From NCBI GenBank assembly GCA_050949085.1, contig JBMNFB010000009.1, positions 352,446 through 416,445 of the forward strand: DNA of 64,000 bases, given 5' to 3'. The notes beneath the pieces were generated by a model that was not told the DNA's origin, did no database searches, and saw only the letters and a list, made by a program, of their open reading frames with translations. Each line of letters opens with the position of its first letter. The stretch's first letter is position 1. A program made the position numbers and the translations under genes. Shown one piece after another: positions 2,514 through 56,599 of the stretch. Source of the stretch: Bacillota bacterium. GTDB lineage: Bacteria > Bacillota > UBA994 > UBA5500.

Positions 2514-4166
2514 CTACTTGATCATCGGCAGCTTCACACCACGCTCCCTGGCTGTGTCGATGGCCAGCTGATAGCCAGCATCGGCGTGGCGCATCACGCC
2601 GGTGCCCGGGTCGGTCGTAAGGACGGTGCGCAGGCGCCACTCGGCCTCGTCGCTGCCGTCGGCAACAACCACCATGCCGGCATGGATGGAGTAGCCGATG
2701 CCCACACCGCCGCCATGATGCACTGACACCCAGGTGGCGCCGGAGACAGAGTTGAGCAGGGCATTGAGGATCGGCCAGTCGGCAATGGCGTCGCTGCCAT
2801 CGCGCATGCCCTCGGTCTCGCGGTTAGGCGAGGCCACCGAACCAGAGTCCAGATGGTCGCGACCGATGACGATGGGCGCCTTCAGTTCGCCGCTCCTCAC
2901 CATTTCATTGATGGCCAGACCGAACTTGGCTCGCTCGCCATAGCCCAGCCAGCAGACGCGGGAAGGCAGCCCCTGGAAGGCGACGCGCTCTTCGGCCATC
3001 GTAATCCAGCGCCGCAAATGCTCATCTTCCGGGAAGAGCTCCAGCACCTTGCGGTCCGTCTTCAGGATATCCTCCGGATCGCCGGACAGGGCTACCCAGC
3101 GGAACGGTCCCTTACCTTCGCAGAACAGGGGCCGAATGTAGGCGGGTACGAAGCCCGGGAAGTCGAAGGCGTTCTTCACCCCGGCATGATCCTTGGCCTG
3201 CTGACGAATATTGTTACCATAATCGAAGACGACGGCGCCTCGCTTCTGCATCTCCAGCATGGCGGTAACGTGCCGACCCATGCTGGCATAGGAACGGCGC
3301 AGATATTCATCCGGATCCTTCTCCCGCAGCTCGAGAGCCTCGGCATAGGACATCTGGCCAGGGACGTAGCCGCTCAGCGCATCGTGGGCCGAGGTCTGGT
3401 CAGTCACCATATCGGGTATGCGGCCACGCTCAACCATCTCCGGCAGAATGTCCGCTGCGTTACCGAGGAGGCCGATAGAAAGCGCCCGGCCTTCAGCCAG
3501 AGCTTCATCCGCCAACCGCAGGGCCTCATCCAGAGAATCGGTCTTCACATCGAGATAACGCGTCTCCAGGCGGCGCTGGATGCGGTGCTCGTCCACCTCG
3601 ACCACGATGGCGACGCCCTCGTTCATCGTCACCGCCAGAGGCTGCGCGCCGCCCATGCCGCCCAGACCAGCCGTCACCACCAGCTTGCCTTTGAGCGAGC
3701 CGCCATAATGTTGACGGGCTGCCTCAGCGATGGTCTCATAAGTGCCCTGGAGGATCCCCTGGGTCGCAATATAGATCCAGCTGCCGGCCGTCATCTGGCC
3801 ATACATGGTCAGACCCTGGGCTTCCAGCTCCCAGAAGTTCTCCCAGTTAGCCCAGGCGGGCACCAGCATGGCATTGCTGATCAACACCCGCGGCGCCCTG
3901 GTGTGGGTACGGAACACCCCGACCGGCTTACCCGACTGAACAAGCAGGGTCTCGTCGTCCTCCAGCTCCCTGAGCGCAGCGACGATGGCGTCGAAGGCTT
4001 CCCAGTTGCGGGCCGCCTTGCCGGTGCCGCCATAGACGATCAGCTGCTCGGGTATCTCGGCCACGTCGGGGTCGAGGTTGTTCATCAGCATACGCAGAGC
4101 GGCTTCCTGCTGCCAGCCCTTGCAGGAGAGCTCACTCCCCCGCGGGGCACGGATGATTCTTGACAT
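2514..4166 (-). CDS. hutU: Urocanate hydratase
   Basis: [37 protein letters not shown] and full-length match in character to urocanase. GAGGAGGAA RBS 7 nt before ATG 4166. Confidence 0.93.
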
Positions 4167-5774: not shown

Positions 5775-5941
5775 GTAGGCTCCCTCCATCTCCAGTTGTT
5801 CAAACGCAAGTATTGATCGCACACAAGAAGACTCCGGTCGTGCTGGCTCGCTTGACAGGAGCGCAGCCTGGTTGTTAGCATTGATTAACATCCATCAAAA
5901 GTTGGATGTTGCCTGAAGAAGCACAGGTAAGGAGGATGAAG

Positions 5942-6562
5942 ATGCCTAGTTCACTGCGAGCAGCCCTCGGCCGCATCCGCAACTATCTCATCGCCGCCCT
6001 GATTCTCTTCCTGCTGGGGATCACCATCGGCGCAGTGGCCACCAGCCAGGACCCGGATGCCATGCTGCAGGCCATCGAGACGGTGGCCAAACAGCTGCAG
6101 CAACTCGGCGAGGATATCCTCAGCGGTCCGCTGGGCGAAGGTATTCTCCTGCTGTTCTGGCATAACCTGCGGACGGTGCTGATGATGGCCGTCTTCGGCC
6201 TGGCCCTGGGTATCCCCGCGGCCCTCGGCGTACTGATCAACGGCGTGATCATCGGGGTCGTCGGTGTGCTCAGCACCCAGACAGCCGGAATCGTCCCCTT
6301 CCTGGCTGGCATCCTGCCCCACGGAGTATTCGAAATCCCCGCCCTGCTCATCGGCGCCGGAGTCGGCCTCCGGCTGGGCCTGGGCCCGCTGCTGGCGCGA
6401 CGCAGAAGCACGTTTGCCACGCCAGCGCCCGCCACCTGGCAGGGCTATGGGTGGGAACTGCGCGAAGCCCTCAGGGTACTCCTGTTCTGCGCCCTGCTGC
6501 TGGCCATAGCCGCCGCTATCGAGGTTAGCATTACCCCGCGCCTCATCGGCCTTACCCTCTAG
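5942..6562 (+). CDS. spoIIM: SpoIIM-family (DUF95) integral membrane protein
   Basis: Multi-TM protein with ILPHGVFEIPALLIGAGVGLRLG motif. AAGGAGG at 5929-5935; ATG candidates at 5936 and 5942 (track start 5906). Confidence 0.7.
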   Translation: MPSSLRAALGRIRNYLIAALILFLLGITIGAVATSQDPDAMLQAIETVAKQLQQLGEDILSGPLGEGILLLFWHNLRTVLMMAVFGLALGIPAALGVLINGVIIGVVGVLSTQTAGIVPFLAGILPHGVFEIPALLIGAGVGLRLGLGPLLARRRSTFATPAPATWQGYGWELREALRVLLFCALLLAIAAAIEVSITPRLIGLTL

Positions 6563-29553: not shown

Positions 29554-29739
29554 CTTAACATCTCACTCCCTTGCTGTTCTGGGTGTTCCCCTATTCTCTT
29601 CGACGCCTACCCATGTATTCCCTTTCTGTATTCCATAATGTTGTGAAAAATACCGCTAATTTTTTGGCCGCAGCCTGCTGAATTTTTCCCGCCTCCAGAA
29701 GAGAAACTAAGACAGATTCTGAGAAGGAGGGTGAACGAC

Positions 29740-30285
29740 TTGAAGAAAACTGTTATCGGTGTTTTTTCAGCTGAGTCCAGAGCGGAACAGGCCGTAAGGC
29801 AGTTGCGTGACAGCGGCTTCTCCGGCAACGAGATCAGCATTGTCTCTAAGGATGATGGTCGCCGGGAGTCTTCTCGCGGCGGTGGTGCCATCAATCGATC
29901 CAGTTACGAAGGCGGCACGATGAGCGGCGACAGACGTAGCGGCATGGGCATGGATCAGGTCAGCGATGGCGCCCTTAGCGGAGCCGCGTGGGGCGGGCTG
30001 GCTGGTCTCGCCTTAGGCGCAGGTGCCCTGGCAATACCGGGAGTCGGCCCACTGCTGGCCGCTGGACCGATCAGCGCCGCTCTGACGGGCGCAGCCACCG
30101 GCGGGCTGGCCGGCGGATTGCTGGATTGGGGCATCCCCGAGGACCGCGGACGCCACTATGAGGATCGCGTCAAGCGCGGCGACCTGCTGGCCATCATTCA
30201 GGTGTCCGATCGGCAGGCAGATCGCGCCGCGGCCGTCCTCCGCGAGAATGGCGCCCAGGATGTAGAGATTCACGATCATCGTTAA
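29740..30285 (+). CDS. General-stress-type protein with a central glycine-zipper segment (DUF1269/YflT-like)
   Basis: N-terminal VIGVFSAESRAEQAVRQLRDSGF, Gly/Ala zipper GAAWGGLAGLALGAGALAIPGVGPLLAAG, C-terminal GIPEDRGRHYEDRVKRGDLL. TTG 29740 lies 9 nt after AGGAGG (track GTG 29731). Confidence 0.7.
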   Translation: MKKTVIGVFSAESRAEQAVRQLRDSGFSGNEISIVSKDDGRRESSRGGGAINRSSYEGGTMSGDRRSGMGMDQVSDGALSGAAWGGLAGLALGAGALAIPGVGPLLAAGPISAALTGAATGGLAGGLLDWGIPEDRGRHYEDRVKRGDLLAIIQVSDRQADRAAAVLRENGAQDVEIHDHR

Positions 30286-30323
30286 GTACCACCAGGAGTA
30301 GAAAACAAGGACTGTCGCAATAA

Positions 30324-30363
30324 CACCCACTGCTTCTTCTGGGTTGCAGTGGGTGCTTTCTTG
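30324..30363 (+). terminator. Rho-independent terminator of the stress-protein gene
   Basis: CACCCACTGC-loop-GCAGTGGGTG followed by CTTTCTT. Confidence 0.7.
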
Positions 30364-30376
30364 AGCATATGGAATA

Positions 30377-30790
30377 CAGGGCATCACCCCTGAAGGCGCA
30401 TCCCGATAGGTCGTTAGTGAGGTACCAACCGATGTTTGCAGGCAAACATCGCCTTATTGACATCGCAAGTCCCTATCGGGACTCGCTTAAGAGAAGGCGA
30501 AACGAGACGGGAGTGCTTGCGCACTTGCTAGAGCAGCAACTGTCTGAGCTCTCCCTGGCAGTCATACAAGGTGAGCTCAGACGCCACCCATGGCATAGAT
30601 GCCAAGAGTTCTGGCTTCGGTGGGGCGAGTTTTGCTGCTCCCCGACTCGTTTCGTTTGATACCGTATAAGTTGGGGACATACCTCAGAGACTCAAGACGA
30701 GCATCAGGCAATGCCCACCAAATCGGCATCATGCTGAGGTGTGTCCCCTGACCTTTGACGACATCGGCGCGCCCGAAGGGGTGTGCCCTG
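30377..30790. repeat. Copy A of a structured intergenic element bounded by inverted repeats (candidate ncRNA or MITE-like element)
   Basis: Arms CAGGGCATCACCCCT (30377-30391) and AGGGGTGTGCCCTG (30777-30790). Shares ordered blocks with 42089-42384, including identical AGCAGCAACTGT and GCGAGTTTTGCTGCT. Contains one 68-nt double-hairpin unit. Confidence 0.75.
30421..30490 (-). repeat. Solitary copy of the 68-nt double-hairpin unit, inverted relative to arrays A1 and A2
   Basis: The reverse complement reads GCGAGTCCC-gata-GGGACTTGC ... AATAAGG CGATGTTTG-cctg-CAAACATCG GTTGGTACC. It is collinear with the array unit. Confidence 0.85.
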
Positions 30791-30796
30791 ACTTGG

Positions 30797-30830
30797 GGGG
30801 TTGCTGGTGCAACAGCCCCTTTTCTTATTT
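30797..30830 (+). terminator. Plus-strand hairpin plus T-tract overlapping the purR stop
   Basis: GGGGTTGC-tggt-GCAACAGCCCC (one bulge) followed by TTTTCTTATTT. There is no T-tract on the minus strand, so it fits termination of a plus-strand transcript ending at element A. Confidence 0.5.
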
Positions 30831-31694
30831 CTGACGTCTGAACCAGCAGCCCGGGCTGGCGACAACCCGCTGCCCCACCGGATCGATTTCCTCAAGGCAG
30901 GCCACCGCATAGAATTCGCTGACCAGCTTCTGCTCAGGCTGGCTGGTGGCCACCAGCACTCCACAGCCGACGGTGGTGGCGCCAAACTCCTGCATCAGCT
31001 GCTCCAGCCCGAGGGCGGTTCCACCAGCGCGCATAAAGTCGTCAATGATCAGGGCCCGGGCCGCCTGGGGCACGCTGCGTCGCGGCAGCGCCATCGTCTG
31101 CACCCGCTGGCTTGAGCCCGAAACGTAATTGATGTTCACCGTTGGGCCCTCGCTGCGCTCATGCCTCATCAGGAGCGGCCAGCCTGCCTCACTGGAGCCA
31201 GGCAGTTCCTTGCGGGCGATGGCCAGAGGCACGCCCAGATAACGTGCCGTCGCATAGGCCAGGGGAATCCCCCGCATCTCGACGGTGAGCACCACATCGG
31301 GCTGACGTTCGGCAAAAATGTGGGCAAAAAGCTGCGCAAATCGCTCCACCTGCTGGGCATCGCTGCAGAGATCGCTGGTATAGAGATAGCCGCCGGGGAG
31401 AATGCGCGCCGGATCGGCCAGTTGCTCACAGAGCAGCTGCACCGTCTCCCGCTCCCAGGCAGCATCGCCGCCAGGGAGCCACCTGATCCCGCCGTTAACA
31501 CCGGCAACCGTCTCGATCCGACCCAGATTGAGGGCGGCAAGGCTATCCTTTAGCTGAGCTACATCCTCGCTGAGGGTAGACTTGGCTACGCCTAGTCTGT
31601 CCGCCAGTTCGGTGAGCGAGATCACCTGATTAGGGCGGTCCGCCAGGAGTCGGGTGATAACCCCAGCTCGTCCCCCCTTACTCAACCTCTCCAC
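30825..31694 (-). CDS. purR: Pur operon repressor
   Basis: N-terminal winged-helix region and a PRT domain with LIIDDFMRAGGTALG. Synteny ispE...purR...spoVG. GTG start after GAGGAGG. Confidence 0.9.
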   Translation of the reverse strand: MERLSKGGRAGVITRLLADRPNQVISLTELADRLGVAKSTLSEDVAQLKDSLAALNLGRIETVAGVNGGIRWLPGGDAAWERETVQLLCEQLADPARILPGGYLYTSDLCSDAQQVERFAQLFAHIFAERQPDVVLTVEMRGIPLAYATARYLGVPLAIARKELPGSSEAGWPLLMRHERSEGPTVNINYVSGSSQRVQTMALPRRSVPQAARALIIDDFMRAGGTALGLEQLMQEFGATTVGCGVLVATSQPEQKLVSEFYAVACLEEIDPVGQRVVASPGCWFRRQK

Positions 31695-31717
31695 TACATC
31701 GGCCTCCTCGCCTGGGG

Positions 31718-32476
31718 TTAACTGCCTACCCGCAGCGCCTGCCTCGCCAACTCCAGATCACTATCCTTATCCACATCTGTACCCACCTCGGGGTAGGAAC
31801 AGACGATGGCCGCACCGGTAATTCCCAGAATGCGGGAGACGCGCGCTTCAAACTCCGCCAGCGTCAGGGAGCCGCGCACCAGCTTGGCCACGAGACCGAT
31901 TCCCGGCCAGCCAAACATCAGGCACATTTTAGCCGGATTTTTGCGTTCCGCCAGCAGGCGCCTGATAATCTCCGCCAGGCGCGGCAACTCATCGGGGCGG
32001 AAGACAAAAATATTGCCGCCGGTGAAGGCTCCATCCTGCAACCGGGCATAGGTGCGTTTCACCCCCGGATAACGCGCTTCACAGACGTCTTGCCGGATGA
32101 TGGGGTAATAGAGATCCGCTTCCCGGGTCTCCATCTCCTGCAGAAGACCATCGATTATCTCCGGTGTGATCATCGGAATATCGCTGGTACAGACCATAAC
32201 CTTCTCAGCGTCAGGCACCTGCTGGGTGGCCATTACGATGTTATCCACGATGTCATGCTGATCAGGCAGGAGGGTTATGCCGGCTGGCACCACCTGGGCC
32301 AACTCCTCAATCGGGCCGACCACAGCTATGGTGCTCACGCTACGACACTTGATGAGGGCGTCGATCACGTAGGCGACCATGGGAATATCGTTGATCGGCA
32401 GAAATGCCTTATTGTTCATCCCATGGCTTAGCGCCAGCTGATCTCCGCTGCCACCTGCCAGAACAATTGCATGCAT
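31718..32476 (-). CDS. MobA-like NTP-transferase domain protein (specificity unknown)
   Basis: MHAIVLAGGSGDQL...NKAFLPI nucleotidyltransferase signature. ATG 32476 follows GAGGAGAG. Confidence 0.7.
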   Translation of the reverse strand: MHAIVLAGGSGDQLALSHGMNNKAFLPINDIPMVAYVIDALIKCRSVSTIAVVGPIEELAQVVPAGITLLPDQHDIVDNIVMATQQVPDAEKVMVCTSDIPMITPEIIDGLLQEMETREADLYYPIIRQDVCEARYPGVKRTYARLQDGAFTGGNIFVFRPDELPRLAEIIRRLLAERKNPAKMCLMFGWPGIGLVAKLVRGSLTLAEFEARVSRILGITGAAIVCSYPEVGTDVDKDSDLELARQALRVGS

Positions 32477-32492
32477 GGGCGACTCTCCTCGC

Positions 32493-33182
32493 TTATTCAG
32501 TCTTCCTGTGGTGAGTTCTAATCCAGTCAATCAAAGCCTTTTCTGCGTTGGCAATATGCTCCCTGGCCAGCTGCTGAGCTAACTCGGCGTTATGCTCAGC
32601 TATCGCTTCGGCGATCTTCTTATGCTCCTCATAGACTGCTCCCATCCGGCCTGGCGTACTCAGGGAAGTACGCCGGAACCGCTGAATATGTTCGCGCAGA
32701 TTGTTGATAATCTGGGCCAGCCGGTCATTGTGGCTGGCACGGTAAAGCACATCGTGAAATGCCTCATCCAGCGAAATCGAGCGCAGCAGATCGTTCTTCT
32801 GGAGACTCTCTCCTACCTGATCGAGAATGCGCTCCAACTCGCCGACTTCGTCGTCGGTGATGCGGTCGGCCGCCAGACCAGCGGCCAGCGCCTCAAGGGC
32901 GGAACGAATCTCGTAGGTTTCCACTACATCCTTGACGCTCAGGTCAGAGACATAGGCACCGCGCCGCGGGACCATGACCACAAAGCCTTCCAGCTCCAAT
33001 TTACGAATTGCCTCTCGTACCGGCGTACGACTAACTCCCATCTCCTCGGCCAACTGCACCTCCATCAGCCGATCCCCGGGAGCCAGCACTCCTTTGACGA
33101 TGGCTTCGCGCAGATGCTCAAAGACAATCTCGCGCAGAGGCTTATAGTTCTCTAGTTTAACAGGTATCAACTTCTCAGCCAT
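32493..33182 (-). CDS. GntR-family transcriptional regulator (FadR/FCD subfamily)
   Basis: N-terminal GDRLMEVQLAEEMGVSRTPVREAIRKLELEGFV wHTH and a helical FCD-type C-domain. Confidence 0.88.
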   Translation of the reverse strand: MAEKLIPVKLENYKPLREIVFEHLREAIVKGVLAPGDRLMEVQLAEEMGVSRTPVREAIRKLELEGFVVMVPRRGAYVSDLSVKDVVETYEIRSALEALAAGLAADRITDDEVGELERILDQVGESLQKNDLLRSISLDEAFHDVLYRASHNDRLAQIINNLREHIQRFRRTSLSTPGRMGAVYEEHKKIAEAIAEHNAELAQQLAREHIANAEKALIDWIRTHHRKTE

Positions 33183-41989: not shown

Positions 41990-42088
41990 TGCACTCACTC
42001 TCCTTCAGTGATCAAACCAGGGTAATGGTTGCTTTTCATGCAGGGATAGTATCATTCAGGCGCAAGACACTAACTGTCTGCCTGGGGA

Positions 42089-42384
42089 CAGGGCACCGCC
42101 CACCAAGGCCCTTTGGCGGCGTATTCAAAGGAGCGAGACGAGACGGGATCAGAAGCAGCAACTGTTCGAGCGCCCTTGGCGGTCGCTGAAAGCGCAGCTC
42201 GCTATCCCATTCCTGTGACCAGGGACCCAAAGCTCTGGCCTCTCTGAGCGAGTTTTGCTGCTTCCCCGTCGCGGCGAGCTCATACCGACAGACGAGGGAA
42301 GCCCAGGCCTTGGGGGGCGTGGCCTGTCCCCAGATGCTTCCTTGAAGACTGCGGTCGAGCCCGGACCTGGAGGGGCGTGCCCTG
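42089..42384. repeat. Copy B of the structured inverted-repeat-bounded element, inside the metG 5' leader
   Basis: Arms CAGGGCACCGCCCACC (42089-42104) and GGAGGGGCGTGCCCTG (42369-42384). Blocks GAGACGGGA, AGCAGCAACTGT (42154-42165) and GCGAGTTTTGCTGCT (42248-42262) are in the same order as copy A. Confidence 0.75.
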
Positions 42385-42416
42385 GCCCGAGGCACTTCTT
42401 GCACACAGCCCAAACG

Positions 42417-42672
42417 GTACAAAAAACCGCCATCCCCTCAGGGACGGCGGTCCGTGGTACCACCCTGCTTTGCTGGCTAAAGCCAGCCTCAGCGGCATAA
42501 GAAGCCTATCAGATAACGCCTGAATCACGGGGTGACCTAACTCCTGCGAACTCAGCCACCCGGCTCCGGAGCCATCTTCATCGGTAACCCGTCTGCCGGC
42601 TTGCACCTGCACCGGCTCTCTGGAAGACGCGTTGGTCCGATTACTCTTTCCTTCATTGCCTGTAATTTGCGA
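42417..42672 (-). promoter_or_regulatory. T-box riboswitch leader (candidate Met specifier AUG) with intrinsic terminator at 42420-42450
   Basis: Minus strand: stem I elements AGAGAG and GGTGCAA, then CCGAUGAAGAUGG in the specifier region. T-box AGGGTGGTACCACGG with antiterminator ACGG-accg-CCGT-CCCT. Terminator CCGCCGTCCC-tgag-GGGATGGCGG plus TTTTTTGT; its G-T wobble fits only the minus strand. Confidence 0.85.
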
Positions 42673-48206: not shown

Positions 48207-48312
48207 GGATTAAATCCTTTCAAATCCCTTTGGGATTTGCAGTGGTACAAGCCGATAGTTGCTACCGCAACAATCGCTTTATTGGATTATCAAATCCCTT
48301 TGGGATTTGAAT

Positions 48313-48389
<77 letters not shown>

Positions 48390-48502
48390 CCGTTATCGAG
48401 TTGTGGTTATCAAATCCCTTCAGGATTTGCAGTGGTACAAGCCGATAGTTGCTACCGCAACGATCGCTTTATTGGATTATCAAATCCCTTCAGGATTTGA
48501 AA

Positions 48503-48579
<77 letters not shown>

Positions 48580-48594
48580 TCGTTTCACATATTG

Positions 48595-56291: not shown

Positions 56292-56310
56292 GCCGCTTCC
56301 CCCCTCCTTC

Positions 56311-56599
56311 AGCAAGTCCGTTAGGACTTGCGAGCTAGATAAGGTGATGTTTGCTTGCCAAACATCAGATGGTACATCAGCAAGTCCGTTAGGACTTGCG
56401 AGCTAGATAAGGTGATGTTTGCTTGCCAAACATCAGATGGTACCTTAGCAAGTCCGTCAGGACTTGCGAGCTAGATAAGGTGATGTTTGCTTGCCAAACA
56501 TCAGATGGCACCTTAGCAAGTCCGTCAGGACTTGCGAGCTAGATAAGGTGATGTTTGCTTGCCAAACATCAGATGGCACCTTAGCAAGTCCGTCAGGAC
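56311..56599. repeat. Tandem array A2 of the 68-nt double-hairpin unit (4 full copies plus a 17-nt partial)
   Basis: Units start at 56311, 56379, 56447, 56515 and 56583. Unit AGCAAGTCCGTYAGGACTTGCGAGCTAGATAAGGTGATGTTTGCTTGCCAAACATCAGATGGYACMTY. Fills the radA-disA intergenic space. Confidence 0.95.

Follow-up and report, generated by a model that had tools for sequence, protein, structure and literature searches.

The centre is the best-conserved part of ERIC elements, in which longer variants are insertions at fixed internal sites, shorter ones are deletions, and pairing is maintained by compensatory changes. Among the large noncoding RNAs of Rfam, OLE, HEARO/omega RNA, ROOL, GOLLD and raiA are sometimes linked to mobile DNA. 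ERIC elements, also called IRU, are imperfect palindromes of ~127 bp in Enterobacteriaceae (Hulton et al. 1991; Wilson & Sharp 2006, cited in PMC3184786), and terminal inverted repeats, target duplications and a flanking TA have been reported for elements of this type (PMC3184786). MITEs are defined by terminal inverted repeats, target duplications, the lack of a transposase gene, a long RNA stem-loop and a size under ~400 bp (PMC3184786). Both ERIC and MITEs can form long RNA stem-loops at the 3' ends of genes, are co-transcribed with them and affect mRNA decay (PMC3184786). REPs, which make up BIME mosaics and the REPINs associated with RAYT transposases, are palindromes of 20 to 40 nt (PMC3116915).

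We analyzed a 414-nt intergenic block (copy A) within the window, the 64,000-nt stretch of DNA under study. It belongs to a family that is a real and previously undescribed structured interspersed repeat, of which seven related copies were found: A, B and C in the species of the window, and L019, L032, L021 and L027 in its relatives. Our favored reading, held with moderate confidence, is that copy A is a member of a dispersed, noncoding, non-autonomous family of ERIC/MITE-like structured repeats, confined to one small clade of Bacillota that are uncultured, form spores and have a high G+C content. Like ERIC, the element is noncoding and intergenic, is found in either orientation and often at the 3' ends of genes, would be co-transcribed with its neighbors and forms a long RNA stem-loop. 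Unlike ERIC, it is about twice as long (~250 nt), belongs to a different phylum and shows no target duplication; its extra segments are members of other repeat families, and copy B had no blastn match (word size 11) in 5,426 complete genomes of E. coli. ERIC is its closest analogue in behavior, the resemblance being functional and architectural only. With bacterial MITEs (Correia, RUP, Chunjie, Nezha, bcr1 and others) the element shares its small size, the lack of a transposase gene, terminal inverted repeats, dispersed copies with past mobility, presence or absence among relatives, a stable RNA stem-loop and the capacity to carry terminators.

Composition of copy A

The features named in the sequence-only reading were all found at the positions it gave. 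All the parts of copy A lie on the plus strand of the window. The left arm (30377-30416) is the 5' strand of the outer rod (P1) and pairs, in the predicted folds and as inverted repeat I5, with the right arm (30753-30790), its 3' strand. The inverted repeat by which the sequence-only reading had closed the block, CAGGGCATCACCCCT at 30377-30391 and AGGGGTGTGCCCTG at 30777-30790, was located in these arms as claimed. Compared with the corresponding arms of L027 and L021, identity amounts to 92-95% for the left arm and 97-100% for the right arm. Next to the left arm lies a nested 68-nt two-hairpin repeat unit of a separate family (30417-30494), 80-92% identical to units that form tandem arrays at 1-239 and 56306-56599 in the opposite orientation. 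It is followed by the 5' strands of helices P3 and P4 (GCGAAACGAGACGGG, 30497-30511), which covary and pair with 30641-30654 (inverted repeat I4), where the helix CGAAACGAGACGGG/CCCGACTCGTTTCG described earlier for this copy was also found.

The central part starts with a lone hairpin, AGTGC-TTGC-GCACT (30512-30528), that matches the second hairpin of the full 68-nt unit carried by L027 at the same site. Then come the 5' strand of P5 (AGCAGCAA) together with the 5' side of an internal loop, CUGUYYGAG (30529-30549), both conserved in the six full copies, and a variable apical domain of branched hairpins (30550-30624), which occupies an equivalent position in all the copies with little conservation of sequence. 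The segment GCGAGUUUUGCUGCU holds the 3' side of the loop and the 3' strand of P5, and the 3' strands of P4 and P3 follow it (30625-30654; inverted repeats I12 and I4, and covariation). The proposed pairing of AGCAGCAA (30532-30539) with TTGCTGCT (30632-30639) corresponds to I12. Before the right arm lies a nested 76-nt hairpin module, GGGGACATACCTCAG...CTGAGGTGTGTCCCC (30669-30752; inverted repeat I2). The order of blocks that copy A had been said to share with 42089-42384 was recovered, the 12-mer and the 15-mer being separated by 81 and 82 nt in the two copies.

Copy A is a composite of a ~250-nt rod with a 68-nt unit, a hairpin that is probably a remnant, and a 76-nt hairpin module, and its length of 414 nt results from these three insertions. 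This revises the first description, which took 30377-30790 as a single unit rather than as a ~250-nt rod with three nested modules. It also had a local hairpin at 30543-30581 as a segment present only in A; the hairpin exists (30542-30582, inverted repeat I1) and is part of the variable apical domain found in every copy. A diverged extra right arm, placed at 30736-30752, was found at 30737-30752 and is explained by the 76-nt module, since the ends of this module resemble the arms of the element.

Copy A lies between two terminator-like hairpins. Upstream, T1 (30317-30363) is a G+C-rich hairpin, CACCCACTGC...GCAGTGGGTG, followed by a T-run (inverted repeat I8); downstream, T2 (30797-30830) is a hairpin and T-run that abuts and, as had been noted, overlaps the stop codon of purR (30825-30827), and a similar hairpin follows the L027 copy. 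The only signal given by T2 in a permissive Rfam scan was a weak match to an mmgR-like terminator. T1 had been taken for the terminator of the stress-protein gene itself. Nevertheless, a hairpin of the form AATA(A/G)CACCCACTGC...GCAGTGGGTGCYTT also precedes copy C (L034) and L027, at unrelated loci, and T1 must therefore belong to the A subtype of the element. It would act as the terminator of the YflT-like gene and yet travels with A-type elements. Only A-type copies have a terminator; B, L019 and L032 lack T2.

Copies, loci and coding status

All seven copies are intergenic and lie beside unrelated housekeeping genes (the L021 locus is unannotated). Copy A is found between the YflT-like gene and purR, copy B between a T-box and metG, the L019 copy between the genes of RNase J and PspC, and the L027 copy between birA and a bcrA-like gene. 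Copy C (L034) and the L032 copy share the spacer between a PcsB-like peptidase and a PDZ protease, in opposite orientations. Three of the copies are in ~86 kb of the genome of the window (A, B and the truncated C elsewhere on it). Copy A is nearly identical in four further assemblies of the same species, and a look-up with the exact SpoVG sequence returned this species alone, without variation usable for covariation.

Relatives were sought with a 22-base two-block pattern made from the invariant 12-mer and 15-mer, which was scanned against 185,579 species genomes and gave one true relative (L019, from an uncultured Clostridia MAG) and ~8 chance matches. A 21-base pattern scanned against a metagenome collection gave two more (L021 and L027), with seven chance matches. 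The resemblance of the copies goes beyond chance, because the relatives found by pattern have the entire architecture in common. Homologs of RNase J provided a graded series of relatives, in which ~20 kb around each gene was examined; the RNase J of L032 is 90% identical to that of L019. The element was not found in the fetched loci L030, L033, L035 to L037, L039 and L040, and a covariance model of the core (R1) recovered no copy beyond the six known full ones in ~485 kb of related DNA. Neither the pattern scan of viral contigs nor a blastn search of plasmids and phages gave a match. A long "MetG" (P0002) was rejected as a close relative, being an assembly chimera at 57-64% identity. Within one genome, copy A is ~80% identical to C and ~65-69% to B; any spread must therefore be old, with no sign of recent activity.

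Comparison of the loci shows that copies have been gained or lost at single intergenic sites, that they decay and that they host other small hairpin repeats. The site of the L019 copy, downstream of RNase J, is empty in L032 to L037, L039 and L040, and no element locus is common to different species. In copy C the 5' strands of P1c to P5 are missing. Five of the seven copies point the same way as the upstream gene, a bias that is not statistically significant. In the relative L030 (19815-21269, compared with 29731-32530 of the window) the spacer between the nucleotidyl-transferase and YflT-like genes measures 154 nt and purR is missing, so that both purR and copy A are lineage specific at this locus.

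Copy B (42083-42386, plus strand) is a minimal rod without nested units, placed in antisense between the terminator of the T-box leader (42437-42665, minus strand) and the start codon of metG (41998), which are 438 nt apart. In L030 only 65 nt separate T-box and metG, and the region of copy B adds ~370 nt. Any metG transcript extended past the T-box by antitermination has to include the rod, ~300 nt in length, as its reverse complement.

In public annotations, a protein of 75 residues is called on copy A (4895-5122 of L001, corresponding to 30432-30659 of the window). It is almost certainly a phantom open reading frame, as judged from its lack of relatives. A frame of 96 residues in copy A was also rejected as a protein family: a search of 1.84 billion representative proteins returned itself and three weak matches to long unrelated proteins (E values from 2e-9 to 2e-4). 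When 26 six-frame translations of four copies were used as one query, only unrelated proteins were among the matches listed. The earlier view that the copies share no reading frame is upheld, since the frames differ between copies and stop codons break every one of them in at least one copy. The family thus calls for care in annotation, given the 75-residue phantom protein, a terminator that resembles one of the neighboring gene and is carried by the repeat, and a metG T-box leader that is ~370 nt longer.

The position of copy A between convergent genes, with a terminator at either end, and its highly folded RNA resemble type I toxin-antitoxin loci, in which a small toxic peptide would be paired with an antisense RNA; alternatively, such a locus-specific element could be a cis-regulator, such as one that acts from the 3' UTR on the stress gene or purR. 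Both versions are highly improbable, since the same element adjoins unrelated genes, promoters were found on neither strand, and no small frame with a Shine-Dalgarno sequence and a hydrophobic stretch is conserved. The toxin-antitoxin version was rejected because no small hydrophobic frame with a ribosome-binding site is shared by the six copies on either strand.

Scanned at the gathering threshold, the whole window matched only the Rfam models of the T-box, tRNAs and the L10 leader, and no known RNA family matched copy A or B. The element resembles the large RNAs of Rfam (OLE, HEARO/omega RNA, ROOL, GOLLD and raiA) in its size of a few hundred nucleotides, its covarying helices and its occurrence in Bacillota. 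Unlike these, it had no model match in scans permissive to an E value of 10 (A, B and L019 gave chance-level matches far below threshold), it has no conserved neighborhood or associated protein gene, and some of its copies are truncated or inserted in antisense.

The rod and its possible roles

Once the nested modules are removed, the six full copies all measure 243-250 nt and fold as rods. From the ends inwards, the rod is made of an outer stem formed by the arms, helices P3 and P4, a near-invariant P5 (GCAGCAA/UUGCUGC), an asymmetric internal loop, P6 and a variable tip. The internal loop, where CUGUYYGA faces GAGUU, lies between P5 and P6 and is nearly invariant: the 5' side (CUGUYYGAG) varies at the two Y positions only, and GCAGCA and GAG are invariant in the six copies. 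P5 appears in most of the minimum-energy folds of these copies, and the fold of L019 has a z-score of -5.9.

Standard pairs account for 83.7% of the cells of the hand-derived structure and for 98% of those of P5, which has three compensated pairs. RNAalifold, applied to the six cores, predicted the same helices (P3, P4, P5 and P6), which means that the conserved helices first proposed from two copies were recovered independently and carry compensatory changes. Both sides change in 10 of the 33 core pairs, compared with 5.6±1.5 in shuffles (2 of 500 reach ten) and 0 to 2 with slid partners, counts that come from 6 to 7 sequences of about three lineages and hence from few independent events. Individual changes include a switch from A-U to G-C in P5 of L032, which fixes the register of this helix, a compensatory change from C-G to U-A in the outer stem of L021, and two compensated flips in the outer stem of copy C. 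A canonical K-turn was considered for the internal loop and rejected, because it does not fit the register set by the switch in L032; the loop is therefore described only as conserved and asymmetric, with possible tandem G·A pairs.

Wobble cells in the helices comprise seven G·U and one A·C. The former outnumber the latter 7 to 1, a sign that one strand is the folded one, which for A and B is the plus strand of the window. Folding energies of the two strands favored the plus strand in four of the six copies, which does not settle the polarity. Taken together, the comparisons show that the fold adopted by the ~250-nt basic unit is a long, imperfect rod, formed by a single strand whose polarity is defined. 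The family, which is clearly delimited, adds structured repeats from a Bacillota lineage that branches deeply and is uncultured, and its anatomy is unusually readable: a fixed 250-nt rod, an invariant center, strand polarity, nested insertions and dated decay.

These properties could also be those of independently transcribed, trans-acting structured RNA genes present in several copies, with P5 and the loop as a putative binding site. In A-type copies T1 would then shield such a gene from transcription arriving from upstream, and T2 would be its terminator. Such genes would account for helices conserved with compensatory changes, a G·U bias on one strand, a center far more conserved than the ends, a uniform rod length of ~250 nt and a plus-strand terminator after A and L027; the lack of matches to known families would make this a new one. 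We regard this explanation as unlikely, if deserving of attention, since an own promoter and terminator and conserved synteny, as generally expected of such genes, were not found for the family. The repeat-element reading fits better than a dedicated RNA gene, because the copies lie at unrelated loci, none of them conserved between species, and in both orientations, with B (in the 5' UTR of metG) and L032 antisense to flanking genes. Moreover, copy C persists without half of its core, orthologous sites are empty, other repeats are nested inside, and no sigma-70-like promoter was detected upstream of the five copies scanned (A, B, L019, L032 and L027). The distance from T1 to the rod is just 13-30 nt, and the absence of T2 from B, L019 and L032 also speaks against independent genes.

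Under the repeat-element reading, the family is probably co-transcribed with its neighbors and kept folded at the RNA level. The element, apparently without a promoter of its own, would be transcribed within neighboring messages, and its pairing would be kept because the RNA rod matters, for example by blocking exonucleases at 3' ends, or else by offering a target to a binding protein or to an RNase specific for double strands. The A-type subfamily would in addition supply its neighbors with the intrinsic terminators T1 and T2. If the central loop binds a factor, the family would help to explain the maintenance of the fold in ERIC-like repeats, which is still a question for elements of this class. 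A bolder and rather doubtful proposal is that the rod represents a new functional RNA class that spreads as a selfish or domesticated element, the loop beside P5 being a putative site for specific binding of a protein or nucleic acid. If true, the rod would not be a passive palindrome but an RNA encoded in DNA, shaped like a viroid and with a biology of its own.

Ends, flanking hairpins and nested repeats

The inverted arms read CAGGGCAYC.CCCC / GGGG.GTGCCCTG in A, B, L021 and L027, and GGTCAGGC.CTGCGTGC / GCACGCAGGCCTGRCC in L019 and L032. The end sequence varies between subfamilies while the center is invariant, which is the opposite of what would be predicted for terminal repeats bound by a transposase. 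The window contains no further occurrence of the arm motifs, and on this ground an origin from REP-like sequences was rejected for the arms. No direct repeat of 2-10 bp was found at the candidate boundaries of A, B, L019, L021, L027 and L032, the true ends being uncertain, and the empty site of L030 is too diverged from the window to give exact insertion junctions. No transposase was found among the window frames checked against Pfam, which are housekeeping or sporulation genes, and neither the window nor 40 loci contained a parent insertion sequence with matching ends. This absence of a visible target duplication, and of a transposase or larger parent in the window or fetched loci, counts against the repeat or MITE reading. 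The element further differs from MITEs in its invariant and covarying interior, its variable ends and its old, divergent copies. Of the two classes offered by the sequence-only reading, a new RNA or a MITE-like element, a real noncoding family with conserved helices and without an Rfam match is supported, and the MITE class in the strict sense is only a candidate assignment, no target duplication being visible.

The lack of a terminal target duplication would be expected if the element were a single-stranded-DNA mobile element, a PATE- or REPIN-like derivative of IS200/IS605 mobilized by a Y1/HUH transposase whose gene lies at another place in the genome and which would recognize hairpins on one strand. 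The fold maintained, with its pairing and polarity, would in that case be one of DNA and not of an RNA, in line with the constraint on one strand and with the direct hairpins of ~30 nt on both sides of L019, one of which lies in L032 between a partial and a full copy. Three traits are common to the element and PATEs: the absence of a target duplication at the ends, strand polarity and, in the case of L019, a direct hairpin on either side. However, in our family the end hairpins are not general. They are not conserved in A, C, L021 and L027, and in copy B the left one is degenerate and the right one inverted. Genes for a Y1 transposase, TnpB or RAYT were found neither in the window nor among those listed for the fetched loci, and a long covarying rod is not a trait of PATEs, whose TnpA and TnpB are likewise not encoded nearby. 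The hairpins recognized by such transposases are short and subterminal, and a rod of 250 nt with a conserved central loop would not be maintained by them; moreover, G·T wobbles are less tolerated in DNA than G·U in RNA. We consider this origin improbable.

The flanking hairpins of L019 (GGACGGTGGGGACAGGCCCYCCGTCC) lie in direct orientation at 2798-2828 and 3088-3119. In L032, an exact 35-nt duplicate (5922-5956) of the 3' end of the element (6242-6276) is found 310 nt upstream of it and is followed by the L019-type flanking hairpin. The pattern in these two loci suggests tandem units that may have been partly deleted.

The nested modules have their own distribution. The 68-nt unit is missing from copy B, L019 and L032, and in L021 and L027 it occupies a different internal site, the P4/P5 loop, where copy A keeps its lone hairpin; the latter (30512-30528) is probably the remnant of a 68-nt unit inserted in this internal loop. 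In the window, units of this kind form tandem arrays of 3.5 units after hutI (1-239) and of 4.3 units between radA and disA (56306-56599). Two tRNA-Met genes lie in a 190-nt duplication (48220-48584), the spacers of which are occupied by related hairpins. The 68-nt family has no Rfam match. Such intergenic mosaics of short hairpin repeats and tandem arrays recall REP/BIME clusters, from which the element differs as a 250-nt rod with a structured interior and with no RAYT gene seen in the window or loci.

The 76-nt module is also found elsewhere, upstream of and inverted next to the L027 copy (2030-2110 of L027), and alone just after RNase J in L035 (3680-3759). This module could represent a third family of repeats, or else a miniature form derived from the element. 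The spacer between the PcsB-like peptidase and the PDZ protease measures 400-590 nt in all the relatives (L032, 5817-6350; L033, 5813-6361; L034, 6446-6857; L037, 6394-6925; L039, 6308-6899), with sequences unrelated between them, and appears to collect different repeats in each lineage.
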